From: Candidatus Sysuimicrobiota bacterium
GTDB taxonomy: Bacteria; Sysuimicrobiota; Sysuimicrobiia; Sysuimicrobiales; Sysuimicrobiaceae
Direction: 5' to 3'
Length of the DNA stretch: 64,000 nt
Assembly (NCBI GenBank): GCA_040289515.1
Contig: PSLI01000002.1
Location: 20,014-84,013 of the forward strand
The translations under genes were made by a program, and so were the position numbers. This document shows, piece by piece, positions 3,705-50,532 of this stretch. Position 1 is the stretch's first letter, and each line of letters begins with the position of its first letter. The notes under the pieces were generated by a model. That model did not search any database and was not told the origin of the DNA. It saw nothing but the letters and a program-made list of their open reading frames with translations.

Positions 3705-3708
3705 CAGC

Positions 3709-4539: not shown

Positions 4540-4558
4540 GGCGCCGAGCGGGTGGCGG

Positions 4559-8342: not shown

Positions 8343-8353
8343 GGAGGTGGACC

Positions 8354-9757: not shown

Positions 9758-9782
9758 CCCGCCCAGCAGACGGGAGGACGCG

Positions 9783-11476: not shown

Positions 11477-11496
11477 AGGACGGCGAGGAGGGGACG

Positions 11497-12729
11497 GTGC
11501 CCATCCCCCCGGACGTGCGGCAGCACTTCCCCCTGCTGCAGAGGTCGGTGGACGGAAAGCCGCTGGTGTACCTGGACAGCGCGGCGACCTCGCAAAAACC
11601 CCGGGTGGTTCTGGAAGCCCTCCAGCGGTACTACGAGGAGTACAACGCCAACGTGCACCGAGGCCTGTACCGCATCGCGGAGCGGGCCACCCTGGCCTAC
11701 GAGGAGGCGCGGGCCAAGGTGGCTGCCTTCGTGGGCGGCCGGCCGGAGGAGCTGGTCTTCACCCGGGGGACCACGGAGGCCATCAACCTGGTGGCGTACG
11801 CATGGGGAGACGCGTACGTACGGCCAGGCGACGAGATCCTGGTCACCGAGATGGAGCACCACAGCAACCTCGTGCCCTGGCAGCTGCTGGCCCAGCGCCG
11901 GGGTGCCACCCTGCGGGTGCTGCGGGTCCGGCCCGAGGACGGAACCCTGGACCTGGAGGCCCTGGATGGGCTGCTCACGGAGCGGACCCGGATCGTGGCC
12001 GTGACCCACCAGTCCAACGTGGTGGGCACCATCAACCCCGTGCGGCACATCGCGGACCGGGCACACGCGGTGGGCGCCGTGGTGCTGGTGGACGGCGCGC
12101 AGAGCGTCCCCCACATGCCCGTGCGGGTGGATGAGCTAGGCTGTGACTTTTTGGCCTTCTCCGGACACAAGATGTGCGGTCCCACGGGCATCGGCGCCCT
12201 GTGGGGGAGGCGGGAGCTGCTGGAGGCCATGCCGCCTTTCCACGGAGGCGGGGAGATGATCGAGCGGGTGGGACTGGATCGTTCTACGTACAAGGACCCG
12301 CCGCACCGGTTCGAGGCGGGGACCCCCAACATCGCGGATGCCATCGCCTTGGGTGTGGCCGTGGGCTACCTGACCTCCGTGGGGATGGAGGCGGTGTGGG
12401 AGCACGAGAAAGCGCTGGTCCGCTACGCTTTGACCCAGCTGGCGGAAATGGAAGGCGTGCGGGTATACGGGCCCCGCGACCCCAAGCGGCGAGGGGGTGC
12501 GGTGGCGTTCACCGTGGAGGGGGTGCACCCCCACGATGTGGCCCAGGTGCTGGACGGGGAGGGTGTATGCGTGCGGGCGGGGCACCATTGCGCGCAGCCC
12601 CTGCACCGTGCCTTGGGAGTCCAGGCTACCGCCCGGGCCAGTGTGTACCTGTACAATACTCCCGAGGACGTGGACGCCCTGGTGCGCGGCCTGGAGCAGG
12701 TGCGGGCCTTCTTCGGGCGGGCCTCTTGA
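11497..12729 (+). CDS. sufS: cysteine desulfurase SufS (class II)
   Basis: PLP-lysine region SGHKMCGPTGIGALW. The catalytic-Cys loop GHHCAQP is present. Typical SufS length (410 aa). Confidence 0.9.
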   Translation: MPIPPDVRQHFPLLQRSVDGKPLVYLDSAATSQKPRVVLEALQRYYEEYNANVHRGLYRIAERATLAYEEARAKVAAFVGGRPEELVFTRGTTEAINLVAYAWGDAYVRPGDEILVTEMEHHSNLVPWQLLAQRRGATLRVLRVRPEDGTLDLEALDGLLTERTRIVAVTHQSNVVGTINPVRHIADRAHAVGAVVLVDGAQSVPHMPVRVDELGCDFLAFSGHKMCGPTGIGALWGRRELLEAMPPFHGGGEMIERVGLDRSTYKDPPHRFEAGTPNIADAIALGVAVGYLTSVGMEAVWEHEKALVRYALTQLAEMEGVRVYGPRDPKRRGGAVAFTVEGVHPHDVAQVLDGEGVCVRAGHHCAQPLHRALGVQATARASVYLYNTPEDVDALVRGLEQVRAFFGRAS

Positions 12730-12745
12730 ACCGGAGAGAAGCTGG

Positions 12746-13210
12746 ATGCTGCAGGACCTGTACCGGGAGATCATCCTGGACCACTACGCGCACCCACGCA
12801 ACCGGGGAAAGGTGGAGGGGGCGGACATCGCCGTGGAAGGGGTCAACCCCTCCTGCGGGGACGAGATCAGCCTGTACGCCCGGGTCCGGGACGGCCGCCT
12901 GGAGGAGATCCGGTTCGAGGGGCGCGGGTGCTCCATCAGCCAGGCATCTGCGTCCATGATGACGGAAGCCCTCCGGGGCAAGACCCTCTCCGCCGCCCTG
13001 GAGCTGGCCGAAAAGTTCAAGGCCATGATGCACGGACAGCCACCTGACGAAGAACACCTTGGGGAGCTAGTGGCCCTGCAGGGGGTGCGCCGCTTCCCGG
13101 TCCGTATCAAGTGCGCCACCCTGGCATGGGGGGCGTTGCAGCAGGGGCTCCGGGAGTACCAGGCGGGTGGGGCCTCCCGTACCGTAGCTTCCACAGAGGA
13201 CGAGCTGTAA
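12746..13210 (+). CDS. sufU: SufU/IscU-type Fe-S cluster assembly scaffold (sulfur acceptor)
   Basis: NPSCGDEISLY...GRGCSISQASASMMTE...KCATLAW carries the three Cys residues of the SufU signature. Confidence 0.9.
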   Translation: MLQDLYREIILDHYAHPRNRGKVEGADIAVEGVNPSCGDEISLYARVRDGRLEEIRFEGRGCSISQASASMMTEALRGKTLSAALELAEKFKAMMHGQPPDEEHLGELVALQGVRRFPVRIKCATLAWGALQQGLREYQAGGASRTVASTEDEL

Positions 13211-15660: not shown

Positions 15661-15747
15661 GCCGGAGTGGCGGAACCGGCAGACGCGCCGGACTCAAAAT
15701 CCGGTGGGCGCCAGCCCGTGTGGGTTCGAGTCCCACCTCCGGCACCA
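15661..15747 (+). tRNA. tRNA-Leu (anticodon CAA), class II with long variable arm, CCA encoded
   Basis: Acceptor GCCGGAG/CTCCGGC. Anticodon stem CCGGA/TCCGG with loop CTCAAAA. T-loop GGTTCGAGTCC. Ends ACCA. Confidence 0.9.
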
Positions 15748-15822
15748 GGGCGGATAGCTCAGCGGGAGAGCACGTCCCTTACAAGGACGGGGTCGCAGGT
15801 TCGACTCCTGCTCCGCCCACCA
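15748..15822 (+). tRNA. tRNA-Val (anticodon TAC), CCA encoded
   Basis: GGGCGGATAGCTCAGCGGGAGAGCACGTCCCTTACAAGGACGGGGTCGCAGGTTCGACTCCTGCTCCGCCCACCA, very similar to E. coli tRNA-Val(UAC). It abuts tRNA-Leu directly. Confidence 0.9.
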
Positions 15823-34124: not shown

Positions 34125-34154
34125 TGGACAAAATGCGACCCGGTCCGTTACAAT
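34125..34154 (+). promoter_or_regulatory. promoter TGGACA-18-TACAAT upstream of the zinc metallopeptidase gene
   Basis: Sits in the fmt/peptidase intergenic region. Followed by RBS GGCAGGAGGTGA. Confidence 0.45.
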
Positions 34155-34865: not shown

Positions 34866-36238
34866 CGGACAGGGCTTCCGCTGGTCGGGCCGGGCCGCGC
34901 ACCCGCGCGGCCCGGCGTGTCTTCGCAGACGTCCGTTCCGGAAGGGAGCTCGCCCTTCGGGTCCTCCAGCGGGTGGAGCTACAGGGCGCGTTCAGCAACG
35001 TGGCCCTGCAGGCGGCCCTCGCGAAGGCTTCCCTGCCCCCGGGTGAGCGGGAGCTGGCCACGGAGCTGGTCCTGGGTGTGTTGCGGTGGCGCAGCCGCCT
35101 GGACTGGACGCTGCAGGCCAAGTACGACCGCCCGCTGGCGGACCTGCCGGCTGCGGTGCGGCAGATCCTGCGCTTGGGGGCCTACCAGCTCCTGTTCCTG
35201 CACCGGGTGCCGGCTGCGGTGGCCGTGAGCTCCAGCGTGGAGCTGGCCAAGGAGTACGGACATGCGGGTACCGCCCGGCTGGTGAACGCCTTGTTGCGCC
35301 GGATCGGCCGGGAGGGGGAAGCGCCCCCGCCCGGGGCGGAGGACGAGCGACTGGCAACCGTCACCAGCCACCCGTTGTGGTTGGTACGGCGCTGGCTGGC
35401 CCGATGGCCGCAGGACGAGGTGCGGGCCCTGTGCCAAGCGAACAACGAGATGCCCTGGGCTCACGTGCGGGTCAACACCCTGAAGACCTCGGCCGCGGAC
35501 CTGGCCTCCCGGCTGCAGCAGGCAGGGCTGGAGGTCCGAAGGGGGTCGCTGCCGGAGTCCCTGTACGTCCGCGGCCCGCTGGAGGCCCGGCTCAATCTGG
35601 CGCAGGAAGGCCTGCTGGTGGCTCAGGACGAGGCGGCCATGGTGGTGGCTCACGCCGTGGACCCGCAGCCGGGCGACGTGGTGGTGGACGCCTGCGCGGC
35701 ACCCGGAGGGAAGGCCACGCACCTGGCCGCCCTGATGCGCGACCAGGGCCGGGTGGTGGCGTGCGACGTGCACCCGGGCAAAGTGGAAGTGCTGGCCCGG
35801 CGGGCTCGGCTCCTGGGTGCTACCTGCGTGGAAGCGCGGTGTTGCGACGCCCGGAACTTGGAGGTGCGGGACGCAGACCGGGTGCTGGTCGACGCCCCGT
35901 GTACGGGGCTGGGGGTGCTGCGGCGCCGCCTAGAGATCCGGTGGCGGGTGCAGCCGGGGCACCTGTCCCGGGCCGCGGAACTGCAACGGGCCATCCTGCA
36001 GAGCGCCAGCGAGGCGGTGCGGCCGGGCGGGGTGCTGGTCTACAGCGTGTGCTCCACGGAGCCCGAAGAGGGGGAGGCCGTCGTAGAATGGTTCCTGGCC
36101 TCCGGGTCGTTCGCCCCGGAGCCCTTCACGGTCCCGTGGCGGGAGGGGACCCTTCGGGCAGACGGCGGGATGCTCCGCCTGTGGCCCCACCACCACGGCA
36201 CCGACGGCTATTTCGTGGCGAGGATGCGCAGAAGATAA
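34862..36238 (+). CDS. rsmB: 16S rRNA (cytosine967-C5)-methyltransferase RsmB (Sun)
   Basis: NusB-like N-terminal domain. SAM motif DACAAPGGK. Catalytic motifs DAPCTG and SVCS. Confidence 0.85.
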   Translation: MTDRASAGRAGPRTRAARRVFADVRSGRELALRVLQRVELQGAFSNVALQAALAKASLPPGERELATELVLGVLRWRSRLDWTLQAKYDRPLADLPAAVRQILRLGAYQLLFLHRVPAAVAVSSSVELAKEYGHAGTARLVNALLRRIGREGEAPPPGAEDERLATVTSHPLWLVRRWLARWPQDEVRALCQANNEMPWAHVRVNTLKTSAADLASRLQQAGLEVRRGSLPESLYVRGPLEARLNLAQEGLLVAQDEAAMVVAHAVDPQPGDVVVDACAAPGGKATHLAALMRDQGRVVACDVHPGKVEVLARRARLLGATCVEARCCDARNLEVRDADRVLVDAPCTGLGVLRRRLEIRWRVQPGHLSRAAELQRAILQSASEAVRPGGVLVYSVCSTEPEEGEAVVEWFLASGSFAPEPFTVPWREGTLRADGGMLRLWPHHHGTDGYFVARMRRR

Positions 36239-37317
36239 TGGAGCATCCGGACCTTCGTTCCCAGTATGAGGAGGAGCTGCGCTCCTGGTTGGTAAGGCTT
36301 GGGGAGCCCCCCTACCGCGGCCGCCAGCTGGCCCGCTGGGTCCACGCGCACGGAGCGCGCAGCTTCGAGAGCATGACGGACTTACCGACCACCCTGCGGC
36401 GGCGCCTGGCGGAGGAGGCGCACCTCACCTGCCTGCAGGTGCTCCGCCGTACCACCTCCGCAGACAGGTCCACCACGAAGTACCTCCTGCGGTGCGGGGA
36501 CGGCAGCACCGTGGAGAGCGTGTGGATGCGGTACGCCGACGGCCGCCGCAGCGCGTGCGTCTCCACCCAGGTGGGCTGCGGCATGGGGTGCACCTTCTGC
36601 GCCACCGCCCTGGCGGGCTTGTACCGCAACCTCACCGCGGGCGAGATTACCGACCAGGTGCACGTCATGCAGCAGGACCAGGGGGAGCGGGTCACCCACG
36701 TGGTGTTCATGGGCATGGGAGAACCCCTGGCCAACCTGGATGCCACGGTGCGGGCGGTCCGACTGCTGAACGCCCCGTACGGGCTCCGGGTGGGGATCCG
36801 GCGCATCACGGTGTCCACCGTGGGCCTGGTCCCGCAGATCCGGCGCCTCGCGCAGATGAACCTGGGCTGCACCCTGGCCGTATCCCTCCACGCGCCGGAC
36901 GACGACTTGCGGACCCAGCTGGTGCCCGTCAACCGGCGCTACCCCCTCGCAGACCTTTTGGACGCCTGCCGGGAGTACGTGGCGCGCACGGGCCGGCGGG
37001 TGACCTTTGAGTACGTGTTCCTGGAGGGGCTGAACGACACGCCCGATCACGCGCGCCGCCTGGCACAGCGCCTGCGGGGCCTACGAAGCCACGTGAACCT
37101 GATCCCGTGGAACCCCGTGCCGTCCCTTCCATATCGGCGCCCCAGACCGGAGCACGTGCGAGAGTTCGCGCGCACCCTGCGGGAAGCCGGACTTCCCGTC
37201 ACGGTGCGGGTGGAGCGTGGCCTGGACATCCTCGCAGCCTGCGGGCAGCTGCGGGAGGCGCACAGGCCCGGAGGCGGGGTTGCGCGCAGCCTGCAGGCCG
37301 TGGCCGGGACGGTCTAG
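36238..37317 (+). CDS. rlmN: 23S rRNA (adenine2503-C2)-methyltransferase RlmN, radical SAM
   Basis: Radical SAM motif CVSTQVGCGMGCTFCAT and typical RlmN sequence. TAATG overlap with rsmB. Confidence 0.9.
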   Translation: MEHPDLRSQYEEELRSWLVRLGEPPYRGRQLARWVHAHGARSFESMTDLPTTLRRRLAEEAHLTCLQVLRRTTSADRSTTKYLLRCGDGSTVESVWMRYADGRRSACVSTQVGCGMGCTFCATALAGLYRNLTAGEITDQVHVMQQDQGERVTHVVFMGMGEPLANLDATVRAVRLLNAPYGLRVGIRRITVSTVGLVPQIRRLAQMNLGCTLAVSLHAPDDDLRTQLVPVNRRYPLADLLDACREYVARTGRRVTFEYVFLEGLNDTPDHARRLAQRLRGLRSHVNLIPWNPVPSLPYRRPRPEHVREFARTLREAGLPVTVRVERGLDILAACGQLREAHRPGGGVARSLQAVAGTV

Positions 37318-37331
37318 GCACAGGCGCCCTC

Positions 37332-37655
37332 GTGGAGGCCAAGACCCGCATCTTTCGCTTCCGGACCCCGCCGGTGCTGAGGGTGGTGGCGGGGCCGGGC
37401 CGCGGGACGGTGTGGGTGGTGCAGGGCACGCACACCGTGGGCCGCGGGCCCACCTGCGACCTGGTCCTGCCCGACCCAGCTGTGTCCAGGCAGCACGCGC
37501 TGGTGTGCTGGGGGCCGGACGGGACGGAGGTGGTGGATTTGGGGTCCACCAACGGCACGTACGTGAACGGGCGGCGCGTGGCTCGGTGCCGCCTGCAAGA
37601 CGGGGACCGTCTGCAGCTGGGGGAAGTCGTGTTGGAATATCGGGAGAGGCCGTGA
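37332..37655 (+). CDS. FHA-domain protein (small, cytosolic)
   Basis: FHA core reads GTHTVGRGPTCDLVLPDPAVSRQHALV...STNGTYVNGRRV. GTG start chosen. Confidence 0.7.
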   Translation: MEAKTRIFRFRTPPVLRVVAGPGRGTVWVVQGTHTVGRGPTCDLVLPDPAVSRQHALVCWGPDGTEVVDLGSTNGTYVNGRRVARCRLQDGDRLQLGEVVLEYRERP

Positions 37656-38086
37656 GCGAGGTCCTGCAGGCGCTGAGGTATGCCGTCCTGGCGGGCCTGT
37701 TCGTGTTTCTGTACCGTGTGGTGCGGGCTGTGGGGGACGACCTCGGGCAAGCGGCCTCCGGTGGGCCGTGGGCCGTACTGGTGGTGGAGGAGGGGCCCGG
37801 GCTGAGCCCTGGCGAGGTGTTCGCTGTGCGGGGCGAAGTCGTGGTGGGCCGCGCGTCCACCTGCGACGTGGTGGTCCCGGATCCGGGGGCGGGTGCCCGT
37901 CACGCACGGCTGGTGACGGAAGGGGAGGGGTTCTGGCTGGAAGACCTGGGAAGTCCCGGGGGCACGTACCTGAACGGACGCAAGCTGGAGGCCCCCGCTC
38001 CGCTGCGCCAGGGAGACCGCATGCGGGTGGCCTCCACGGTGCTGCGGTTCGTGCAGCCGCACAACACCTGGACAAAAGGGAGCTGA
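37652..38086 (+). CDS. FHA-domain protein with N-terminal transmembrane segment (FhaB/FipA-like)
   Basis: TM segment LRYAVLAGLFVFLYRVV, then FHA (GRASTCDVVVPDPGAGARHARL...SPGGTYLNGRKL). GTGA overlap with the preceding FHA gene. Confidence 0.7.
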   Translation: MSEVLQALRYAVLAGLFVFLYRVVRAVGDDLGQAASGGPWAVLVVEEGPGLSPGEVFAVRGEVVVGRASTCDVVVPDPGAGARHARLVTEGEGFWLEDLGSPGGTYLNGRKLEAPAPLRQGDRMRVASTVLRFVQPHNTWTKGS

Positions 38087-38093
38087 AGGACCC

Positions 38094-39251
38094 GTGCTCA
38101 GGCGTGCGGATCTGCACGGGCTTGTGCTGGCGGTGGGGTTGGGAGGGGTGGCGCTGGTGCACTGGGCCAGGAACCCGCAGGAGCCGCCGGTGGTCCTCGT
38201 GTATGCGGCCGCGGTGCTGTTCAGTTTCTTTGTGGTGGACGTCGTCCTACGCCCGAAGGAAACCCTCCTACTGCCGCTGACCGGACTGCTGGTGGCGGTA
38301 GGACTTGCGAACCTGTACCGGTTACGCCCGCAGCTGGTGGCCGAGCAGGCGGCATGGATGTGCGTGGGGCTGGCCCTGGGGGTGGCCGCCTCGCGGAGTG
38401 CCCGCACGGTGAGGGAGTTTGCGCGGGTACCGGCACTTGCAACTTTGCTCGTAGCGGCCTCCGTCGTTTTATGGGGTGGGTCACAGGTGGGGGCGTACCC
38501 GGTCGCAAAAGACATCCCCTCCCAGCTGGCCAAGCTGCTCGCGGTGCTCGTGGGTGCGGCAGAACTGCACCGGGGTTCCCTGCGGGGACCCGTGATGGCC
38601 GCGTGGGCGGCTGGGGTGGCGCTGGTTCTCCTGGGGGGGGACGTGAGTACCGCTTCGTTGCTGGTGTGGGTGGGTATCGTTGTAGCGTACTGCGCGGGCG
38701 CATCCTGGTCGACCCTCGTGCCCGCATTCGGCGGGTTCCTCTTGCTGGCGAGCTTGGCCCACGCGGGTCTGCCGCAGCTGACGGAGCGGGTCAAGGGGTG
38801 GGTCAACCCGTGGGGTGACCCCCTGGGTTTTGGCTACCCGCTGGTGCAGAGCCTGTTCGCCATGGGATCGGGGGGGCTGGTGGGCGCCGGTCCGGGCTTT
38901 GGCTACCCGGAGCTCGTGCCGCAGGGCCACACCACCTTCGCCCTGGCCGCGCTAGCTGAGGAGTGGGGGTTCGTGGGGGTCCTCGCGCTGCTCTCGGGCT
39001 ACGCGATGTGGGTGGGCAGGGCCCTGCGGTGGGCCGTGCTGGCACCATCCCGCTACGCCCGGTTGCTGGCAGCTGGCGCTGTGGCCCTGGTGGGCGGGGA
39101 GGCGTTCCTGGCTGGTGCGGCAGCCACCGGCCTGCTTCCCGCCACGGGCGCGGGCCTGCCGTTTGTGAGCTACGGGCCGGCTTCCGTGGTGGTGCACCTG
39201 GTGGTGCTGGGGCTATTGCTGGCCGCCCCGGGGTTGCAGGAGGCGCGGTGA
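38094..39251 (+). CDS. SEDS family peptidoglycan polymerase (RodA/FtsW)
   Basis: Polytopic membrane protein with SEDS motifs NPWGDPLGFGYPLVQS and GLPFVSYG. Confidence 0.85.
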   Translation: MLRRADLHGLVLAVGLGGVALVHWARNPQEPPVVLVYAAAVLFSFFVVDVVLRPKETLLLPLTGLLVAVGLANLYRLRPQLVAEQAAWMCVGLALGVAASRSARTVREFARVPALATLLVAASVVLWGGSQVGAYPVAKDIPSQLAKLLAVLVGAAELHRGSLRGPVMAAWAAGVALVLLGGDVSTASLLVWVGIVVAYCAGASWSTLVPAFGGFLLLASLAHAGLPQLTERVKGWVNPWGDPLGFGYPLVQSLFAMGSGGLVGAGPGFGYPELVPQGHTTFALAALAEEWGFVGVLALLSGYAMWVGRALRWAVLAPSRYARLLAAGAVALVGGEAFLAGAAATGLLPATGAGLPFVSYGPASVVVHLVVLGLLLAAPGLQEAR

Positions 39252-40564
39252 CCAGACGCGTTCGGATCCTTTTGGGGATCCACCTGGGGCTTGTGGTGTT
39301 GCTAGTCAGCTGGGTGGCCTACTGGCAGGTGGTGCGGGGTCCTGAGCTGGCCGTTCACCCCGGCAATCCCCGCTTGCTGCTCGCGGAAGAGCGCATCCAG
39401 CGGGGCAGGGTCCTGGACCGAAAGGCGCGCGTGCTGGCCTACAGCGTCCGCCGGGACGGGCGAACCCTGCGGGTCTACCCCGGCGGCGAGGTTTTCAGCC
39501 ACCCGGTAGGCTACCGCAGCTTGCTGCTGGGGAAGGCCGGGCTGGAGGCCACCTGGGACGCGGAGTTGTTGGGAGTGTTTGAGCGGAGGGCGTGGGAGCA
39601 GCTGCGCAGGCGGGGGGGTCGGCCTCCCGTTGGGCTAGATGTGGTGACCACCCTGGACGCGGAGCTGCAGCGGGCCAGCTGGGAAGCGTTGGGACCTCGG
39701 CCGGGTGCTGTCGTGGTGGTGGAGTTGCGTACTGGGCAGGTACTGGCCTCCGTCAGCCGCCCGGGATTCGACCCGAACCGTCTGGAGCAGAGGTGGGCCG
39801 AGCTGCGGTGGGCCCCGGGCTCCCCCCTGGTGGACCGTGCCAGCAGCAAGGTGTACCCCCCGGGGCGGACCTTTGGCATCGTGGTGCTGAGCGCGGCCCT
39901 GAGCCGGGGGCTGGTGGGCCTGGACAGCCCTGTCGGCTGCGGCAACGCCGCCGCGGTCCCTGCCCACCTGGTACGGGAGGTGCTCACCGCGGGGTGCACC
40001 CAGGGCTTGGTGCGGCTTGGTGAGGCCCTGGGCGGCAGGATCCTGCGGGAGATGGCGGAGGCCTTCGGGCTGGGCCAGCCACCAACCGGGGACGTGCCGG
40101 CAGCTGCGGGCCAGTTGCCAGAGGTCGGTGACCAGCTCCGCGACGATCTGACCCACGTGGTGGCGGGGGGAGGCCGGGTCTTGGCCTCGCCCCTGCAGAT
40201 GGCCGCCGTGGCGGCTACCCTGGGACGCGGGGGCGAAAGGGTGGAATTGCGCTTCGTCCAGCGCGTGCAGCACGCGGAGGGCCGGGCCCTGGAACGAACT
40301 TTTCAGCGGGCCCCGGTGCGCATCCTGGCAGTTGAGGTGGCTCAGGCGGTGGTGGAAGCCATGAGGGCTTCGGGTGGGGGATTACTCGCAGGGGTCCGGG
40401 GCACGGTGCGCGTGGGGCCTGCGCCCGTGGGGTGGTTCGTGGCGCTGACTCCGACAGATCTGCCGCGACTTGCCCTGGCGGTGGTGGTGGAGGGCGCCGG
40501 CGAGGAGGTGGCGTGGGCGGTGGCCGGGAAGGTCGCGCAGGCAACCCTGCGGGTGGTACCGTAG
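39248..40564 (+). CDS. PbpA-like class B penicillin-binding-protein homolog with degenerate catalytic motifs (predicted non-catalytic)
   Basis: Strong PbpA-like context DRASSKVYPPGRTFGIVVLSAALS. The SxxK position reads RTFG, SxN reads GCT, and KTG reads VRG. GTGA overlap with the SEDS gene. Confidence 0.8.
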   Translation: MTRRVRILLGIHLGLVVLLVSWVAYWQVVRGPELAVHPGNPRLLLAEERIQRGRVLDRKARVLAYSVRRDGRTLRVYPGGEVFSHPVGYRSLLLGKAGLEATWDAELLGVFERRAWEQLRRRGGRPPVGLDVVTTLDAELQRASWEALGPRPGAVVVVELRTGQVLASVSRPGFDPNRLEQRWAELRWAPGSPLVDRASSKVYPPGRTFGIVVLSAALSRGLVGLDSPVGCGNAAAVPAHLVREVLTAGCTQGLVRLGEALGGRILREMAEAFGLGQPPTGDVPAAAGQLPEVGDQLRDDLTHVVAGGGRVLASPLQMAAVAATLGRGGERVELRFVQRVQHAEGRALERTFQRAPVRILAVEVAQAVVEAMRASGGGLLAGVRGTVRVGPAPVGWFVALTPTDLPRLALAVVVEGAGEEVAWAVAGKVAQATLRVVP

Positions 40565-40587
40565 GCGCAGCGAAGGGAGGCCTGCGC

Positions 40588-42498
40588 GTGACGCTGGCGG
40601 GGTCGGTGCTGGCGGGACGCTACGAGCTGTTGGAGCCTGTCGGCCAGGGCGGAATGGCCACCGTGTACCGCGCCCGCCGCCTGCCGGACGGGAAGGTGGT
40701 GGCGGTCAAGGTTCTGCGGGAGCCATACAGCCACGACCGGGAGTTCGTGGAGCGGTTTCAGCGAGAGGCGGAGGCGGCCGCGTCCTTGGACCACCCGCAC
40801 GTGGTGGCGGTCCTGGACAGCGGGGAGCAGGCCGGCGTGCGCTTCCTCGTGATGGAGTACGTGGAGGGGGAGGATCTGAAGTCCCTTCTGCGGCGGTCCG
40901 GGCCCCTGTCGCCCGAGAAGGCCGCCCCCATCGCTGCCGCGGTGTGCGACGCCCTCCAGTATGCCCACGCCCGCGGGATCGTGCACCGCGACGTCAAGCC
41001 GCAGAACATCCTGCTCACGCCCACGGGGAGCGTGAAGGTGGCGGACTTCGGCATCGCCCGCGCCCTGAGCTCCGCCACCATCACGGAGACGGGGACCGTT
41101 TTGGGTTCGGTGCACTACCTGTCGCCCGAGCAGGCGCGCGGAGAGGCCGCCACCGCCGCCTCTGACCTGTACGCCCTGGGTGTGGTGCTGTACGAGATGC
41201 TCACGGGCCGTCTGCCCTTCGACGGGGAGAGCCCCATCGCGGTGGTGCTGAAGCACCTGTACGAGGAGCCCCCTTCTGTGCGGGAGGTGAACCCGGCGGT
41301 GCCCGCGTGGCTGGAGGGGGTGGTGCGGCGGGCCATGGCGAAGCGTCCGGAGGACCGGTATCCTTCCGCGGCGCACATGCGCGCGGACCTGCAGGGCCAG
41401 GCCGACCACTGGCGCCAGGGTCGCACGGTAGTTTTGGGAGGGCCTCCGCAGCGCCGCGTCCGGCGGAGGGGGCCTTCCGCGGCAGCCGTGGCGGCGGCGG
41501 TGCTGGTGGGGCTCGCTGCAGCCATGGCGGCGGGCTGGCAAGCCCTGCAGGTGTACGTGAACGTGGGAGAGGTAACATTACCCGACCTGCGGGGCCGCAG
41601 TTTCACCGAGGCGCAGGCGGTGGTCGCGGACCTGCGGCTGCACCTGGTGGTGGCAGGGCGACAGTACCACGACCGCTACCCTGCCGGCACGGTGGTGGAC
41701 CAAGATCCTCCTCCCGGACGCAGGGTGCGGGAAGGCCGCTGGGTGTCGGTGGTGCTGAGCCAGGGGACCGAGCGGGTGGTGGTTCCCGACGTGACCCGCA
41801 AGCTGCTGCCGGAGGCCACGTTGCTGCTGGAGCAGAGCCGGCTACGGGTGGGCTCCGTGCGGGAGGACTTCGACGACCAGGTGCCCCGCGGCACGGTGGT
41901 GATGCAGCAGCCGGCCCCGGGGTCGGAGGTAACCCGGGGTGCCGCGGTCGACCTGGTGGTGAGCAAGGGGCCGGAGCTCGTGACGGTTCCGCAGCTGGTT
42001 GGTCTCACTCTGGAACAGGCCCGCGCGGAGCTACACCGGTTGGGTCTCAGCCTGGAGCAGGTGGGCTACGTGGCGCGCGCGGATGTACCTCCGGACGTGG
42101 TGGTGGAACAAGCCCCTCCCGCGGGTTCCCGGGTCCGCCGCACACAGCGGCTCGGGGTCGTGGTGGCCGTCCGCCTACGGGAGGAAGCAACCCCGCGCCC
42201 CTTGATCTCCCCGCCCGCGCAGCCTGCCCCGTCGCCTGCTCACACCTCCCCCCGCGTACAGACCACCACGGAGCCGGTGAGCGGGTCGGTCCGCAGGGTC
42301 CGGCTGGAGGTCACCCTGCCGCCGGGGGACGAGGAGGAGGAAGTACGCGTGGTGGTGATCGACAACCGGGGCGTGCGGGTGGTGTACCGGCAGGTGCACC
42401 CGCCGGGCGACCGGGTGGTGCAAACGGTGGAGGTGGAGGGCTACGCCATCGTGCAGGTGTACTTCGGAACCCGTCTCGTCCAGGAGGTGCGACCGTGA
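40588..42498 (+). CDS. PASTA-domain Ser/Thr protein kinase (PknB/PrkC-like) with extra C-terminal beta-rich domain
   Basis: Kinase motifs VAVK, HRDVKPQN, DFG and SPEQ. TM segment, then three PASTA repeats, then a ~100 aa C-terminal domain. RBS GAAGGGAGG. Confidence 0.9.
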   Translation: MTLAGSVLAGRYELLEPVGQGGMATVYRARRLPDGKVVAVKVLREPYSHDREFVERFQREAEAAASLDHPHVVAVLDSGEQAGVRFLVMEYVEGEDLKSLLRRSGPLSPEKAAPIAAAVCDALQYAHARGIVHRDVKPQNILLTPTGSVKVADFGIARALSSATITETGTVLGSVHYLSPEQARGEAATAASDLYALGVVLYEMLTGRLPFDGESPIAVVLKHLYEEPPSVREVNPAVPAWLEGVVRRAMAKRPEDRYPSAAHMRADLQGQADHWRQGRTVVLGGPPQRRVRRRGPSAAAVAAAVLVGLAAAMAAGWQALQVYVNVGEVTLPDLRGRSFTEAQAVVADLRLHLVVAGRQYHDRYPAGTVVDQDPPPGRRVREGRWVSVVLSQGTERVVVPDVTRKLLPEATLLLEQSRLRVGSVREDFDDQVPRGTVVMQQPAPGSEVTRGAAVDLVVSKGPELVTVPQLVGLTLEQARAELHRLGLSLEQVGYVARADVPPDVVVEQAPPAGSRVRRTQRLGVVVAVRLREEATPRPLISPPAQPAPSPAHTSPRVQTTTEPVSGSVRRVRLEVTLPPGDEEEEVRVVVIDNRGVRVVYRQVHPPGDRVVQTVEVEGYAIVQVYFGTRLVQEVRP

Positions 42499-43169
42499 TC
42501 CGCCTGGCACCGTCTGTGCTATCCGCTGACTTCGCGCATCTGGCCGACCAGGTGGCGGAGGCGGAGGAAGGGGGCGCAGACTGGATCCACGTGGATGTCA
42601 TGGATGGGCGCTTCGTGCCCAACCTCACCGTGGGCCCGTTGGTGGTGGAGGCCATCCGCCGCTGCACCAGGCTGCCCCTGGACGTGCACCTCATGGTGCA
42701 GGACCCCGACCTCCTGCTGCAGGCATTCCGGGCCGCGGGAGCGGACCGTCTGTCGGTACACGTGGAAGTGTGTCCTCACCTCCACCGTACCCTGTCCCGC
42801 ATCCGGGAACTGGGTGCCGCCCCCGGCGTGGCCCTCAATCCCCACACGCCACCCGAAGCGGTGGAATGGGTGCTGGATGAGGTGGACACGGTGGTGGTGA
42901 TGACGGTCGACCCCGGGTTCGGTGGCCAGGAGTTCCTGCCCGGCATGCTGCGCAAGGTGCAGCAACTGGCCCGCCGCAAGAAGGAGCGGCACCTGCACTT
43001 CGAGCTGGAGGTGGATGGGGGGGTGGACGTGGATACGGGCATGCAGGCCGCGCAGGCGGGGGCCACGGTCCTGGTCGCCGGGCACTTCGTGTACCGCAAC
43101 CCCAAGGGGGTGGCCGCGGCCCTCCACGCTCTGCGGCAGGCCGTTTCTTTCGGGCTTGCGCGCACGTGA
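42495..43169 (+). CDS. rpe: ribulose-phosphate 3-epimerase
   Basis: Typical Rpe sequence (SVLSADF, HVDVMDGRFVPN, DPGFGGQ). GTGA overlap with the kinase gene. Confidence 0.9.
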   Translation: MIRLAPSVLSADFAHLADQVAEAEEGGADWIHVDVMDGRFVPNLTVGPLVVEAIRRCTRLPLDVHLMVQDPDLLLQAFRAAGADRLSVHVEVCPHLHRTLSRIRELGAAPGVALNPHTPPEAVEWVLDEVDTVVVMTVDPGFGGQEFLPGMLRKVQQLARRKKERHLHFELEVDGGVDVDTGMQAAQAGATVLVAGHFVYRNPKGVAAALHALRQAVSFGLART

Positions 43170-44206
43170 GCATCCTGCTCCTGTACCACCGGGACTGCCT
43201 CCTGCACGCCCCGCCGCGGCCGCACCCCGAGAAGCCCGAGCGGCTGCAGGCGGTACGGGAGGCGTTGGAGCGGGCGGAGCTGTGGGACCAGCTCCCCCAC
43301 GAGGAGCCGGCTCCCACCCCGTGGGAGCTGCTGGAGCTGGTGCATCCCCGCAGCTACCTGGACCAGGTGCGCCGCGCCAGCCGGGCGCCGGGGGTGTGGC
43401 TGGACCCCGACACCTACGCGGCGGAGGGGACCTGGCAAGCGGTGGTGGCCGCCACCGGAGCCGCGGTGCGGGCCGTGGAGGCGGTGGTGCGGGGTCCTCA
43501 CACCAGCGCGTTCGCCCTCGTGCGGCCGCCCGGCCACCACGCGGGGCCTAGTCGGGCCATGGGGTTCTGCCTGGTGAACCACATCGCGGTGGCAGCCCAT
43601 TACGCCCGGGAGCACCTGCACATCGAAAGAACCATGGTGGTGGACTGGGATGTGCACCACGGCAACGGCACGCAGGAGGTGTTCTACCGCGATGGGGGCG
43701 TGCTGTTCGTCTCCCTACACCAGGAGGGCTGGTACCCTGGCACCGGTGCGGTGGAGGAGACGGGTGCGGGCGAGGGGGAGGGGCTGACGGTGAACGTACC
43801 CCTGCCCCCGGGCGTGGGGGACGAAGGGTACCGGTCCGTGTTCGAGGAGGTTGTCCTGCCCCTGGGGGACGCGTGGAAGCCGGAGCTGGTGCTGGTTTCC
43901 GCAGGTTTCGACGCGCACCACTCCGACCCCCTGGGCCGCATGGCACTCACCCCGGCCGGGTTCGCCCGTTTGGCGGGTATGCTCCGGGAGGCCGTTCGCA
44001 GGTGGTGCGGCGGCCGTCTGGCGCTGGTCCTGGAAGGGGGCTATGACCTCCGCGCTCTGTCCCGGTGCGTGGAGGCCACCGTGAGGGTGCTCGCTGACCT
44101 GGAGGCCCCAGCTGCGGAGGGCCCCGTCTCCGAGATCCCGTATGGGGTGGTGCGGGAACGGATCCGGGTGGTCCGGCGCGTGCTGTCGCAGTACTGGTCC
44201 GTGTAG
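43166..44206 (+). CDS. histone deacetylase superfamily protein (AcuC / acetoin-utilisation-type deacetylase)
   Basis: RPPGHHA, DWDVHHGNGTQ and EGGY motifs are present. Confidence 0.85.
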   Translation: MSILLLYHRDCLLHAPPRPHPEKPERLQAVREALERAELWDQLPHEEPAPTPWELLELVHPRSYLDQVRRASRAPGVWLDPDTYAAEGTWQAVVAATGAAVRAVEAVVRGPHTSAFALVRPPGHHAGPSRAMGFCLVNHIAVAAHYAREHLHIERTMVVDWDVHHGNGTQEVFYRDGGVLFVSLHQEGWYPGTGAVEETGAGEGEGLTVNVPLPPGVGDEGYRSVFEEVVLPLGDAWKPELVLVSAGFDAHHSDPLGRMALTPAGFARLAGMLREAVRRWCGGRLALVLEGGYDLRALSRCVEATVRVLADLEAPAAEGPVSEIPYGVVRERIRVVRRVLSQYWSV

Positions 44207-44327
44207 GTTCGCCCGGAAGGCTGGTCCGCAGAACCTGGTCGCCTTGCCCAACTCGCCCCCGGCGGGTATAATGGCGAGCACCCGGGGCGGAAACGCCCTT
44301 TTTTCGCGTGTCGGCGCAGGAGGCGCT

Positions 44328-45581: not shown

Positions 45582-45659
45582 CGGGGCGTGGCGCAGCTTG
45601 GCTAGCGCGCAGCGTTCGGGACGCTGAGGTCGGCGGTTCAAATCCGCCCGCCCCGACCA
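45582..45659 (+). tRNA. tRNA-Pro (anticodon CGG), CCA encoded
   Basis: Acceptor CGGGGCG/CGCCCCG. D-stem GCGC. Anticodon stem CAGCG/CGCTG with loop TTCGGGA. T-arm GGCGG-TTCAAAT-CCGCC. Confidence 0.85.
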
Positions 45660-45862: not shown

Positions 45863-45869
45863 AAGCTGG

Positions 45870-45965
45870 AAGCGCACGGGGTGGTCGGCGGGAAACCGTC
45901 GGCCTGAGACAACACCCGTTGAACCTGATCCGGGTAATGCCGGCGGAGGGAATGCGCAGGACGTC
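45870..45965 (+). promoter_or_regulatory. TPP (THI-box) riboswitch
   Basis: GGGGTG...CTGAGA...ACCCGTTGAACCTGATCCGGGTAATGCCGGCGGAGGGA matches the THI-element consensus. It lies upstream of thiO-thiS-thiG-thiE. Confidence 0.85.
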
Positions 45966-46062
45966 TCCAGCGGATCCCCCGCAGCCCTGACTTCTTGAGC
46001 TTCCCTTCTGCGGGCAGGCGGCGCGATTGCGCTCCGGTTCGGGTTGCGCGAAGAGGTACCGT

Positions 46063-47174
46063 GTGAGACCCGACGTGGCCGTGGTAGGTGCGGGCGTCAT
46101 CGGCCTCGCGGTGGCGGACGCGCTCGCCGACAGCGGCCGCCGGGTGGTGGTGCTGGAGCGCGACCGGGTGGGCGAGACCTGCGCGGCGGCGGCGGCCGCA
46201 GGCATGCTGGCGCCCGCCGCCGAGGCGGACACCACTCCTCCGGCCACCACGCAGCTTGCCCTGGCCAGCCACCGCATGTACGCGGAGTGGGTAGCCCGGC
46301 TGGAGTCCGCTTCCGGCGTGGAGGTGGGGTTTGACCGCGCCGGTACGGTGGTGGTAGCCCTGGACGCCGACGACCTGCGGGAGCTGGTTCACTTGGAGCG
46401 AGTGCAGCAGCGGTTCGGCCTGCGCACGCGCAGGCTGTCGGGCGAGGAGGCACGGGAGCTGCAGCCTTCCCTGGGCCCATCGGTGGTGGGGGGACTCCTG
46501 CTGGAGGAAGACTGGCAGGTGGATCCCCGACGGCTGCTGCAGGCGTTGCGGCGAAGCGTAGAGGTTCGGGGCGGGCAGGTGGTGGAGGGCGCCGAGGTAC
46601 AGGGCCTTTGGCGCAAGGATGGCACCTGGTGCGCGGTCCTGCGGGGCGGGGGGGAGGTAGCCTGCCCCACGGTGGTGGTGGCCGCGGGCGCCTGGACGCC
46701 ACAGCTGCTGCCCCCGGAGGTGCACCGGATCCCCGTACGTCCGGTTCGGGGCGTGGCCCTACGCCTGGCCGCTGGGCTGCAGACTCGCCGCGTGGTGCGC
46801 ACGCCCCGGGTGTACGTGGTGCCGCGGGCCTGGGGAGAGACGGTGGTGGGCGCCACCGTGGAGGAGCGGGGCTGGGCACGGGAGGCGCTCGCGGGTGGCG
46901 TGTACGAGCTGCTCCGGGAGAGCCGGCGCGCGCTGCCGTGCGTGGACGAGATGCCCCTGCAGGAAGTGGTGGTGGGCTTCCGCCCCGCCATCCGGGACAA
47001 CGTCCCCGCCATCGGCGCCCTGGACGAAGGTCACACGCTGTGGGTGGCCACGGGCCACTACCGCAAGGGGGTGGAGCTGGCACCGCTGACCGCAACCGTG
47101 GTGCGGCAGCTGCTGGACGGGGAAAGCCATCCGCTCGCCGGGTGGGTGGACCCGCGCCGGTTCGCGGAGAACCC

Positions 47175-47178
<4 letters not shown>
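46063..47178 (+). CDS. thiO: glycine oxidase ThiO (FAD-dependent)
   Basis: DVAVVGAGVIGLAVA Rossmann fold. DAO-family. GTG start with GAAGAGG RBS. Confidence 0.85.
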
Positions 47179-48192
<1,014 letters not shown>

Positions 48193-48195
48193 GAG

Positions 48196-48861
48196 GTGTT
48201 GTTGGCACAGACGCAGCCGGCGTGCCCCACCACAGGCGGCACCGTTGAGGTGCCGCGACTGCTGGTGGTGGCGGACGTGGACGGCGCGGGCGGCCCGGTG
48301 GCCTGGGAAGGCGTGCTGCTGCGGCTGGCCGGGCTTCCCCCGGGGCTGCAAGTGGCCGTGCAGGTGAGGGCCAAGGGCCGCCCGCCGGCGGAGCTGCGGC
48401 AGCTTGGGGCGAAGGCGCGGGAGCTGCTAGCGGATCGCGTCCCCGTGGTGCTCAATGGGCCGCCCGCGGTGGCCTGTACCCTCCGTTTGGCGGGCGTGCA
48501 CTGGCCGGAAGCGGAGATTCCCAGCGCGGTACCCCGGGAGGCAGAAGGGCTGCTGCGGTCTGCGAGCGTGCACGGTCTTGTTGCGGTGCGCAGGGCGCAG
48601 CGCGTTGCCCACTACGTGCTGTTCGGGCCTGTGTTTGAGCCAAGGTCTAAGCCAGGTACCGGCGCCGGCGTGGAGGCCCTGCGGCAGGCCTGCGCTGCCA
48701 GCCGCCTGCCCGTGCTGGCCATCGGCGGGGTGACCGCGGAACGGGTACCCCTGTGCGTGCAGGCCGGCGCGGCGGGCGTGGCGGTGGTGTCCGCGGTGGT
48801 ACGGGCCGCAGACCCGGCGCGGGAGGTGCTGCGGCTGCTGGACGCTCTACCGGGAGGGTGA
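48196..48861 (+). CDS. thiE: thiamine-phosphate synthase ThiE (divergent)
   Basis: LFGPVFEPRSKPGTGAG...LAIGGV fits the ThiE C-terminal motifs. AGGAGG RBS. Confidence 0.7.
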   Translation: MLLAQTQPACPTTGGTVEVPRLLVVADVDGAGGPVAWEGVLLRLAGLPPGLQVAVQVRAKGRPPAELRQLGAKARELLADRVPVVLNGPPAVACTLRLAGVHWPEAEIPSAVPREAEGLLRSASVHGLVAVRRAQRVAHYVLFGPVFEPRSKPGTGAGVEALRQACAASRLPVLAIGGVTAERVPLCVQAGAAGVAVVSAVVRAADPAREVLRLLDALPGG

Positions 48862-48920: not shown

Positions 48921-49613
48921 ATGGATCTGCGGGAAGCACTGTGGACCCTCCACCTCCTGGATGTGGCCATCGGCGAGCGGCAGGGGGCCGCGGATGCCCT
49001 CGCCACCGACACGGGTACCGCCGCACGGCTGGCTGAGCTGCGGGAACGGTTGGAGTCCCTGCGCGCCCGCGCACGGCAGGTGCGTTCCTGCCAGCAAGCC
49101 GCGGAGCTGCAGCTGCAGTCTCTTCGGGAAAAACGGCAACGCCTAGAACGTGAGCTGTACAGCGGGCGGTTGAGCCCGCGGGAGCTGGTGAACCTGCAGC
49201 GGGAGCTGGACGCCTTGGCGCGCCAGTACGCGGAACTGGAGAGCTGGATCCTCGGGCAGATGGAGGAGGCGGAATCTGTGGAGCGGGAGCTGGAAGACCT
49301 GGACCGGGAGCTGCAGCGCCTGGAAGCCGTGTACCGGGAAGCCGTGGAGGACCAGGCGGCGCGGTCCAGGGCCCTGCAGGTGGAGCTACAGACCCTGCGG
49401 CAGCGCAGGGGGGCGCAGGTGGCTTGCATGGATCCGCAGCTGGTGCAGCAGTACGAACGACTACGCCAGCGGCTCCACCCCCCGGTGGCCAAACTGGTGG
49501 GGAAGGCCTGCGGGGGCTGTCACGTAAGCCTGGCCCGCGCCTTCCGGGAGCGGCTGATCTCCGCGCCCGTACCTCTCGCCTGCCCCGCGTGCGGGCGGTT
49601 GCTGGTGCCGTGA
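48921..49613 (+). CDS. COG1579-type coiled-coil protein with C-terminal C4 zinc ribbon
   Basis: Long coiled-coil, then CGGCHVSL...CPACGRLL. It sits upstream of rnhA, as in mycobacterial synteny. Confidence 0.75.
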   Translation: MDLREALWTLHLLDVAIGERQGAADALATDTGTAARLAELRERLESLRARARQVRSCQQAAELQLQSLREKRQRLERELYSGRLSPRELVNLQRELDALARQYAELESWILGQMEEAESVERELEDLDRELQRLEAVYREAVEDQAARSRALQVELQTLRQRRGAQVACMDPQLVQQYERLRQRLHPPVAKLVGKACGGCHVSLARAFRERLISAPVPLACPACGRLLVP

Positions 49614-50242
49614 AGGTGGTGGTGCGTCCCGATGGCGCCTGCCGGGGAAACCCGGGGCCGGCGGGGATCGGGGTGGTGCTGGAGGACGCCTCGGGCCGCG
49701 TCTTGCGGGAGGTGTCTGAGGCCATCGGTCCGGCCACCAACAACGTGGCGGAGTACCGAGCTTTGCTGCGGGGTCTGGAGGAGGCGCGCCGACTGGGCGC
49801 TCGTGAGGTGGAGGTCCGCACCGATAGCCAGCTGGTGGCCCGCCAGCTCCTGGGCCGCTACCGGGTACGGGATCCGGAGCTCAAGAGTTTGTTCGACTCC
49901 GCGCAGAAATCCCTGCAGGCCTTCCAGCGGGTGGTGGTGCGGAGCGTGCCGCGGTCGGAGAACGCAAGGGCGGATCAGCTGGCCAGGCGCGCCGTGGCTA
50001 CTCCGGACCCTGTGGAGGCCTTGGTGCAGGCCGCGCGTGCGGGCCGGGCAGAAGAGGCCGTCGCTCTTTTGCGGCGGCTCTCGGGGGAGGCGGTGCGAGA
50101 GGCTGCGGAGAAGCTGGCGAGAGAGCTAGCGACCCTCCCCCTTCCCAACCGTGGGAAAATAGAAGCGGGAGCGGGCCGGGCGGCCGCGCCGCCCGAGGGC
50201 GGTGAGGAAAGTCCGGGCTCCACAGGGCAGGGTGGTGGGTAA
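49610..50242 (+). CDS. rnhA: ribonuclease HI (C-terminal tail overlaps the rnpB 5' region)
   Basis: DGACRGNPGPAGIGVV, EYRALL, TDSQ and ENARADQLA are catalytic DEDD-type motifs. The last ~80 codons are low complexity. Confidence 0.8.
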   Translation: MKVVVRPDGACRGNPGPAGIGVVLEDASGRVLREVSEAIGPATNNVAEYRALLRGLEEARRLGAREVEVRTDSQLVARQLLGRYRVRDPELKSLFDSAQKSLQAFQRVVVRSVPRSENARADQLARRAVATPDPVEALVQAARAGRAEEAVALLRRLSGEAVREAAEKLARELATLPLPNRGKIEAGAGRAAAPPEGGEESPGSTGQGGG

Positions 50243-50532
50243 CGCCCACCCGGGGTGACCCGAGGGAAAGTGCCACAGAAACATACCGCCGGCCCCGCGA
50301 GGGGACGGTAAGGGTGAAAAGGTGCGGTAAGAGCGCACCGGCGGTGTGGTGACACGCCGGCCAGGCAAACCCCACCCGGAGCAAGGCCGAGTAGGGGGAG
50401 ATGAGGTGGCCCGCCGATCCCCGGGTAGGCCGCTAGAGGCCTCCGGCAACGGAGGTCCCAGAGAGATGGCCGCCACACCGGGGTTCGCCTCGGTGTACAG
50501 AACCCGGCTTACAGGCCCGCTCCCGCCCGGAA
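50163..50532 (+). ncRNA. rnpB: RNase P RNA (bacterial type A)
   Basis: GAGGAAAGTCCGGGCTCCACAGGGCA is the P4 5' strand. GGTAAGGGTGAAAAGGTGCGGTAAGAGCGCACC and ACAGAACCCGGCTTA are also present. P1 pairs GGGAGCGGGCC with GGCCCGCTCCC. Roughly 370 nt. Confidence 0.85.

Follow-up and report, generated by a model that had tools for sequence, protein, structure and literature searches.

The fhaA…pknB cluster of Actinobacteria occupies an origin-proximal neighborhood, which is different from the interval between rlmN and rpe in which the cluster described here is found. Mycobacteria have a well-known operon of this kind (PMC11898655, PMC6554272), which in Mycobacterium tuberculosis comprises fhaA-fhaB-pstP-rodA-pbpA-pknA-pknB (Rv0020c-Rv0014c). 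In Firmicutes, the arrangement prpC-prkC-cpgA is located at a locus of the rlmN…rpe type (PMC6449344). Penicillin-binding proteins of class B (bPBPs) that belong to the PbpA type have been found to adjoin kinase and phosphatase genes, according to a global survey of SEDS proteins and bPBPs (PMC12516126). In the window, i.e., the whole analyzed stretch of 64 kb from a Candidatus Sysuimicrobiota bacterium (contig PSLI01000002.1), five co-directional genes with strong Pfam support (37332-42498, plus strand) are flanked by rlmN on the 5′ side and rpe on the 3′ side; they encode two FHA proteins (FHA1 and FHA2), a SEDS protein, a penicillin-binding protein (PBP), and a PASTA Ser/Thr kinase. This module is a reduced version of the Terrabacterial fhaA-fhaB-pstP-rodA-pbpA-pknB operon and probably a kinase/FHA signaling unit that keeps a non-catalytic SEDS-bPBP pair as a scaffold or regulator.

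The window is collinear with the M. tuberculosis operon, with an FHA protein, a membrane FHA protein, a SEDS protein, a PbpA-type PBP, and a PknB-type kinase following one another. Unlike this operon, it lacks PstP, PknA, and the N-terminal domain of FhaA (FhaA_N, or DUF3662), and the catalytic residues of the SEDS protein and the PBP, as well as the phosphothreonine (pThr)-binding residues of FHA2, are gone. That the locus lacks pstP, pknA, and the FhaA_N part had been noted in the first-pass annotation, and profile and Pfam scans agree with this; the second kinase, PknA, is also absent from all relatives examined in the phylum CSP1-3 (Sysuimicrobiota). The flanks are those of Bacillus subtilis prpC-prkC-cpgA(-rpe), and the kinase resembles that of B. 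subtilis in its three PASTA domains, C-terminal domain, and juxtamembrane threonine (PMC6449344). In contrast to the B. subtilis locus, prpC and cpgA are missing, two FHA genes, the SEDS gene, and the PBP gene lie between rlmN and the kinase gene, and an HDAC-family gene follows rpe. The kinase gene is directly preceded by the PBP gene and its stop codon is overlapped by rpe, whereas prpC and cpgA hold these positions in Firmicutes. Below, related loci are designated by L-numbers and homologous proteins obtained from searches by P-numbers; in relatives, the flanks were examined up to approx. 10 kb on each side where the contig allowed.

SEDS and PbpA-Type Proteins That Have Lost Catalytic Residues

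The SEDS protein is a multi-pass membrane protein of the RodA/FtsW family and has the features of PF01098. In this family, the aspartate corresponding to D255 of Thermus thermophilus RodA is essential for glycosyltransferase activity. When the window protein is aligned to this RodA (6BAR, E 1e-23), a threonine is placed at D255, a position that reads alanine in 6BAS; the HTD motif reads HTT, and the catalytic Asp in extracellular loop 4 (ECL4) is gone. The E..K, DLGG, and SYGGSS motifs are eroded as well, and the first of them has lost its conserved Glu. Across the clade that shares the reduced operon, the D255-equivalent residue is T, G, S, or P, with L003 as the one member that has Asp; all outgroups have Asp here. 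Aspartate is kept in 147 of the 150 nearest SEDS cluster representatives (from 1.84 billion proteins), and thus the residue is not dispensable; the three representatives without it are the nearest relatives of the query. The protein scores 148 bits against TIGR02210 (rodA), far below the cut-off of 337 bits.

Among the closest relatives of the SEDS protein in the representative library, many have a length of approx. 880-900 amino acids (aa). In two contigs from another lineage (L022, 3539-5755, and L023, 2928-4649), FhaA, FhaB, and PP2C are followed by an unannotated open reading frame (ORF) of at least 739 aa that leaves the contig. This long ORF may be a candidate SEDS-bPBP fusion like those described in the global survey (PMC12516126).

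The PBP is of the PbpA type, with one N-terminal transmembrane (TM) segment, a dimerization domain (PF21922), and a transpeptidase (TPase) fold (PF00905). Its closest solved structure is M. tuberculosis PBPA (3UN7, E 5e-41), in which the Ser and Lys of the catalytic motif are aligned to Arg and Gly of the window protein, respectively. In particular, SxxK is replaced by RTFG, SxN by GCT, and KTG is absent (VRGT), and the protein scores far below the NCBI equivalog cut-off. All three TPase motifs are lost in P0001-P0018 and retained in P0019-P0044; the degenerate character of the PBP, recognized in the first-pass annotation from this one sequence, is common to the clade.

Engineered bPBPs that are TPase-dead and yet functional have been described, namely B. 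subtilis PBP2B and Clostridioides difficile SpoVD (PMC12516126, citing Sassine 2017 and Shrestha 2025; PMC12713402), and they provide a precedent for a TPase-independent role of a bPBP. These proteins are laboratory point mutants that work with an active SEDS protein, whereas here the loss is natural, extends over the whole clade and all three motifs, and coincides with the loss of the SEDS aspartate. Natural loss of SEDS or bPBP catalytic residues is not described in the retrieved passages of the global survey (PMC12516126), and a partial literature search found no specific report of a naturally non-catalytic SEDS protein or bPBP. The gene set and its logic are already known; what appears to be new is a natural pair of pseudoenzymes.

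FHA Proteins and the PASTA Kinase

FHA1 is a soluble protein that consists of an FHA domain only, with no TM segment in a hydropathy scan. It was aligned to FhaA proteins of 243-264 aa from L004, L010, and L013-L015, and by this alignment it evidently corresponds to the FHA domain of FhaA after deletion of the FhaA_N domain and the linker; an FhaA_N profile found no match in the 64-kb window. The pThr-binding residues of FHA1 are intact (VGR, SRQH, and STNGT). An invariant Thr-Arg within a TR[VI][YF] motif is located just N-terminal of the FHA domain in every FhaA or FHA1 protein of L002-L015, including those of Chloroflexota (in the window, 37332-37380, i.e., FHA1 residues 1-16). By analogy, this threonine could be a putative kinase target for a self-binding switch like that of GarA or OdhI.

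FHA2 is an FhaB/FipA-like protein with one N-terminal TM segment (residues 10-28, hydropathy scan) followed by an FHA domain. Its best NCBIfam match is FhaB_Rv0019c, with 80.6 bits, under the cut-off of 125 bits. In FHA domains, the residues of the GR, SxxH, and NG(T/S) motifs contact the pThr peptide. In the window protein, GR is kept, while SxxH reads GARH and NGT reads SPGGT (Ser and Asn both replaced by Gly). Within the clade, the Asn of NGT is lost in seven of seven proteins and the Ser of SxxH in six of seven, and neither loss occurs in the outgroups. Because these two residues are replaced, FHA2 is probably weakened in pThr binding or does not bind pThr. The ratio of nonsynonymous to synonymous substitution rates (dN/dS; here and below from the closest genome pairs, L005, L006, and L012, with dS 0.15-0.35) is 0.16-0.24 for both FHA genes in close pairs. 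Mis-calling of the FHA ORFs, which the first-pass annotation had considered, is ruled out by these values together with conservation of the ORFs in seven assemblies.

The kinase is of the Stk1/PknB/PrkC type and matches NF033483 with 572 bits, above the cut-off of 450 bits. None of the loci shows damage to the VAxK (VAVK), HRDxKPQN, and DFG motifs or to the activation loop, and identity within the clade is 76-79%. The kinase domain is followed by the juxtamembrane Thr280, a TM segment (residues 298-316), three PASTA domains, a Pro-rich linker, and a seven-strand β-sandwich. Thr280 (PT[VA]V), approx. 20 residues past the kinase domain, is conserved in every relative for which this part of the kinase is available. 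Its placement is similar to that of the phosphosite T290 of B. subtilis PrkC, which is required for activation (bioRxiv 10.1101/2025.11.01.686061).

The extra C-terminal domain of approx. 100 aa reported in the first-pass annotation is present, but it is a generic Ig-like sandwich that is conserved in relatives and is not specific to this operon. The C-terminal approx. 80 residues are predicted to form the seven-strand β-sandwich with a mean pLDDT of 84 (approx. 90 over the fold); homologues of the extracellular region were mostly short PASTA-only fragments, which gave a shallow alignment for this domain. Foldseek against the PDB yielded only generic Ig-like matches (best E 2.5e-3); a specific kinship with the C-terminal domain of Firmicute PrkC/Stk1 is thus unsupported. 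All relatives with a readable kinase C-terminus, full-cluster lineages included, show strong conservation of the domain, and therefore it is not peculiar to the reduced operon.

Derivation of the Reduced Operon

The order rlmN-FHA-FHA-SEDS-PBP-kinase-rpe-HDAC without a PP2C gene was found in L002/L008, L003/L009, L005, L006, L007, and L012, which are independent assemblies, and the reduced form is common to at least seven independent assemblies. As both the order and the residue states recur in them, an assembly or binning artifact is ruled out. In L004 and L016-L021, a group that includes a forest-soil contig (within L016-L021), the complete series rlmN-FhaA-FhaB-PP2C-SEDS-PbpA-PASTA kinase-rpe-HDAC is present, and FhaA is 243-253 aa long, with FhaA_N and FHA domains. 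These full clusters resemble the window in position, order, and kinase architecture; they differ from it in keeping FhaA_N, PP2C, the HTD/YTD motif of SEDS, the S-x-x-K, SCN, and KTGT motifs of the PBP, and the SxxH and NGT motifs of FHA2. The hybrid of an actinobacterial gene set with Firmicutes-type flanks, which the first-pass annotation had emphasized, is real here but not peculiar to the window, as the full set lies between rlmN and rpe in L004 and L016-L021. Likewise, a PP2C-bearing order is the norm for the wider lineage, and at that level the condition under which the first-pass annotation would have called the locus ordinary holds; members of the immediate clade, in contrast, regularly have the order without PP2C.

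A neighbor-joining tree of rlmN plus the kinase groups the reduced clade with a bootstrap value of 100% and places it within the full-cluster lineages; the state of the window is therefore derived. The reduced clade has undergone deletion of the PP2C gene and of the FhaA N-terminal domain. In addition, alignments show the loss of the SEDS aspartate and of other SEDS motifs, of SxxK, SxN, and KTG in PbpA, and of pThr-contacting residues in FHA2, while the kinase and the FHA1 domain are fully intact and highly conserved.

In the locus of Ca. Sysuimicrobium calidum (L010, 4374-9319), rlmN is followed by a full-length FhaA, FhaB, SEDS, PBP, and kinase; there is no PP2C, and the catalytic motifs are intact. 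Chloroflexota loci (L013-L015) contain FhaA-FhaB-SEDS-PbpA with intact catalytic motifs, and within approx. 8 kb around them neither a PP2C (profile scan) nor a PASTA kinase (tblastn) was found. They are similar to the window in the FHA-FHA-SEDS-PbpA order without PP2C between FhaB and SEDS, and they differ in the full-length FhaA, the intact motifs, the absence of a PASTA kinase within this distance, and the flanks. Besides the pseudoenzyme pair, a graded reduction series in one lineage and a complete actinobacterial-type set in a Firmicutes-type neighborhood appear to be new; a partial literature search found no specific report of the present gene neighborhood outside Actinobacteria.

Selection on the Pseudoenzymes

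Both pseudoenzymes are under purifying but relaxed selection. In close pairs, dN/dS is 0.25-0.48 for SEDS and 0.29 for the PBP, while the kinase gene, rlmN, rpe, and the HDAC-family gene have values of 0.06-0.23. Identity within the clade is 0.46 for SEDS, 0.58 for the PBP, and 0.61 for FHA2, compared with 0.76-0.80 for the kinase and rlmN.

The constraint is unevenly distributed along the proteins. The mean pairwise identity of the PBP N-terminal domain is 0.67 in the reduced clade versus 0.64 in active relatives, and that of the TPase domain is 0.55 versus 0.68. In SEDS, ECL4 is the best-kept region (0.65) and the E..K loop the worst (0.26 versus 0.48). The pedestal of the bPBP reportedly contacts ECL4 of the SEDS protein in the published complex of RodA and PBP2. 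Conservation of the PBP N-domain and of ECL4 would fit a preserved SEDS-PBP interface.

Proposed Mechanism and Alternative Explanations

In the proposed mechanism, the PASTA kinase would sense muropeptides or lipid II outside the cell and would autophosphorylate in the activation loop and at the juxtamembrane Thr280, and FHA1 would read the resulting pThr marks. From the kinase and FHA1 sequences, we infer that the two remain a working cell-wall sensing pathway. The SEDS-bPBP pair would no longer make peptidoglycan and would persist as a membrane complex, possibly as a scaffold, substrate-binding, or regulatory partner of the kinase/FHA system or of active synthases whose genes lie elsewhere. 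Any dephosphorylation would need a phosphatase encoded outside the operon.

Several observations weigh against this explanation. The SEDS protein of L003/HR32 still carries the catalytic Asp, and thus glycosyltransferase loss may postdate TPase loss or be independent of it. The L010 locus indicates that PP2C loss and enzyme degeneration are separable and not strictly linked, and the tree places L004 and L010 with respect to the reduced clade at a bootstrap value of only 55%. Moreover, the highest dN/dS values of SEDS are 0.48 (a close pair) and 0.59 (a distant pair), and some of the protein may therefore be almost free of constraint. Finally, it is from conservation patterns alone that we infer a scaffold or regulator role for the pair.

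As the main alternative, the genes may be decaying slowly behind the coupling of the operon, i.e., SEDS, PBP, and FHA2 would be functionless remnants whose frames survive because expression of the kinase, rpe, and HDAC is coupled to them. In line with this alternative are the short gaps and 4-nt overlaps along the whole unit, the faster evolution of the three proteins relative to their neighbors, and the residues at the catalytic Asp site, which are variously T, G, S, P, and H, as expected once a site is unconstrained. However, the dN/dS values of SEDS and PBP given above are well below 1, and frame upkeep alone would not constrain amino acids; the ORFs are full length and retain many invariant residues across lineages that are only 45-65% identical; and conservation is regional, in the PBP N-domain and SEDS ECL4, rather than uniformly low. 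The PP2C gene, moreover, was cleanly deleted from the same operon, which shows that deletion is tolerated there. We therefore disfavor this alternative and regard it as unlikely, dN/dS and regional conservation counting against it. Still less probable is the explanation of the first-pass annotation, a distinct working elongasome (SEDS and PBP-like protein) under a PASTA kinase and two FHA adaptors that lacks only its phosphatase. The gene set and order do mirror the mycobacterial elongation/division cluster (PMC11898655), and L003 retains the SEDS aspartate; yet the window SEDS has Thr at the RodA D255 position and no E..K Glu, the PBP is devoid of all three TPase motifs, both proteins are far under the NCBI curated cut-offs, and nearly all of the nearest SEDS representatives (147/150) keep the Asp. 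Given the loss of the PBP motifs, the SEDS Asp, and the FHA2 pThr residues, an active elongasome is very improbable.

The missing phosphatase raises a further alternative, which is compatible with the scaffold or regulator explanation for the remaining genes. The first-pass annotation had noted that no PP2C partner gene is present, and this is borne out for the operon and the 64-kb window: Pfam detected no member of the PP2C/SpoIIE family among the called window genes (with IleRS left out of the scan), a profile built from 120 PP2C proteins and run over six frames of the whole 64 kb had no match anywhere, and the spacing of 7 nt between the FHA2 and SEDS genes means that there is no pstP between the fhaB-type gene and the SEDS gene. 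A PP2C (PstP-like or another PPM phosphatase) might instead be relocated in the genome and serve the kinase from there, in which case signaling would still be reversible and only the layout would have changed; we give this somewhat less than an even chance. PP2C phosphatases often serve several kinases and need not adjoin them, which counts for relocation. The search covered 64 kb of the host genome and up to approx. 10 kb of flank in relatives, and L010 and the Chloroflexota loci also have no adjacent PP2C while their enzymes look active. Against relocation, a search for a relocated PstP-like PP2C through the best 120 homologues of the L004 PP2C yielded no reduced-clade contig among the contexts examined; each of the five contexts (P0081, P0086, P0087, P0088, and P0091) is part of an FhaA-FhaB-PP2C cluster from another lineage, which is a weak negative.

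Implications

If the SEDS-bPBP pair is functional, it would represent a natural cell-wall synthase turned signaling or scaffolding module and would offer a way to part the structural and regulatory roles of SEDS-bPBP from catalysis, at which laboratory TPase-dead mutants only hint. The interest of the dead synthase pair would rise if a signaling or scaffold role were demonstrated. The graded series, which leads from the full cluster through a PP2C-less form with active enzymes to a PP2C-less form with dead enzymes, constitutes a natural dissection of dependencies within the PknB/PstP/FhaA/FhaB system. The CSP1-3 layout also physically joins the Firmicutes prpC-prkC neighborhood to the actinobacterial fhaA-pknB set and thus bears on the origin of PASTA-kinase signaling in Terrabacteria.

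A more far-reaching proposal, which we put forward tentatively and consider doubtful as a whole, is that the SEDS protein and bPBP have evolved into a non-catalytic membrane complex (for example, a co-receptor that binds lipid II or nascent glycan, or a docking platform) serving a PASTA kinase/FHA pathway without a dedicated phosphatase, and, separately, that CSP1-3 may preserve the ancestral Terrabacterial operon of the Firmicutes prpC-prkC and actinobacterial fhaA…pknB loci. If the CSP1-3 operon were ancestral, PrpC and PstP, as well as PrkC and PknB, would be positional orthologues, and Firmicutes would have lost the FHA-SEDS-PBP genes at this place.

Operon Organization and Neighboring Genes

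The genes of the module and their immediate neighbors are listed in Table 1. In all related loci, the FHA genes come after rlmN, which in Firmicutes takes the corresponding place ahead of prpC; the position of rpe is identical in all of them, and the HDAC-family gene comes after rpe in every related locus examined (L002-L021). In Firmicutes, cpgA and thiN are located around rpe, where the CSP1-3 loci carry the HDAC-family gene.

Table 1. Genes of the FHA-SEDS-PBP-kinase module and adjacent genes in the 64-kb window
Gene	Coordinates	Strand	Product length	Domains and remarks
rlmN	36238..37317	+		RlmN_N + Radical_SAM (Pfam); radical-SAM 23S rRNA methyltransferase, upstream anchor
FHA1	37332..37655	+	107 aa	PF00498, E 2e-23
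FHA2	37652..38086	+	144 aa	PF00498, E 8e-17
SEDS	38094..39251	+	385 aa	PF01098, E 4e-45
PBP	39248..40564	+	438 aa	PF00905 + PF21922 (PbpA dimerization domain)
PASTA Ser/Thr kinase	40588..42498	+	636 aa	Pkinase + 3 PASTA + approx. 100-aa C-terminal stretch
rpe	42495..43169	+		PF00834, E 3e-77; ribulose-phosphate 3-epimerase, downstream anchor
HDAC-family protein	43166..44206	+		PF00850, E 1e-96

Overlaps of 4 nt (GTGA) connect FHA1 with FHA2, SEDS with PBP, the kinase with rpe, and rpe with HDAC, and the remaining gaps are short (rlmN/FHA1, 14 nt; FHA2/SEDS, 7 nt; PBP/kinase, 23 nt). The close coupling proposed in the first-pass annotation thus stands with regard to these overlaps and gaps; the kinase gene, however, has its start at 40588, with no overlap with the PBP gene, and the gap between them holds the ribosome-binding site AAGGGAGG. 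A scan for promoters and terminators gave weak hints of one unit from approx. 34.1 to 44.3 kb, including weak evidence for a terminator-like hairpin at 44284-44299, 3′ of the HDAC-family gene, which is probably the last gene of the kinase transcription unit.

The gene order and the Firmicutes-like flanks (priA, def, fmt, rsmB, rlmN…rpe) given in the first-pass annotation are in agreement with Pfam matches in the window. Upstream, Pfam identified NFACT (minus strand), yicC, remA, a cytidylate-kinase-like gene, a coaC-like flavoprotein gene, priA, def, fmt, a Zn-peptidase gene, rsmB, and rlmN; downstream, rpe and the HDAC-family gene are followed by an S1-domain gene. The Zn-peptidase gene, located between fmt and rsmB, encodes a membrane protein of the Zn_peptidase_2 family (PF04298; 34173-34865, plus strand) that is kept in L002-L004, L016, and L019, and a σ70-like site lies ahead of it (34125-34154). 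Beyond the S1-domain gene, a thiamine pyrophosphate (TPP) riboswitch (45867-45969, plus strand; 69 bits, gathering score 54) precedes thiO-thiS-thiG-thiE (46063-48861); this thi cluster comes after the S1 gene also in L001-L003 and is absent from L004.

Host Lineage and Other Features of the Window

The host, an uncultivated bacterium from a hot spring, belongs to the phylum CSP1-3/Sysuimicrobiota (SILVA "GAL15"), near Ca. Tepidifontimicrobium, and is not a Firmicute. CSP1-3, Sysuimicrobiota, and the SILVA GAL15 group are the same Terrabacteria phylum, in which Sysuimicrobium and Tepidifontimicrobium are grouped in one family (PMC11604079). A metagenome-assembled genome (MAG) of a "candidate division GAL15 bacterium" encodes a protein with 100% identity to the PBP-like protein, and the ENA contig that bears the kinase is collinear with the window. 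When species-representative genomes were scanned with a PBP alignment, matches came from Ca. Sysuimicrobium calidum, from Ca. Tepidifontimicrobium thermophilum (64% identity), and from several further MAGs, some of them labeled "Armatimonadota". Since the host is a member of CSP1-3/Sysuimicrobiota, the Firmicutes-like synteny sits in another Terrabacterial phylum.

The G+C content of the window is 71%, and raw ORF lists are mostly noise for this reason; the gene map was therefore derived from profiling of GC at third codon positions (GC3) together with Pfam. At the 5′ end of the window, two runs of genes (676-6894 and 7494-13210, plus strand) look ordinary and comprise a menaquinone-type set (a chorismate-binding enzyme, a TPP enzyme, a member of the enoyl-CoA hydratase family, a UbiA prenyltransferase, and an AMP-binding enzyme) followed by a suf gene cluster for Fe-S assembly with a Rieske protein. 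Three tRNA genes were identified with Rfam (15661-15744, 15748-15819, and 45582-45656, plus strand), one of them directly after the S1-domain gene. A bacterial RNase P RNA of class A is encoded at 50168-50527 (plus strand, 297 bits), and as it overlaps the 3′ end of an RNase H/RVT_3-like ORF (49610-50242), this end of the ORF is probably over-called.

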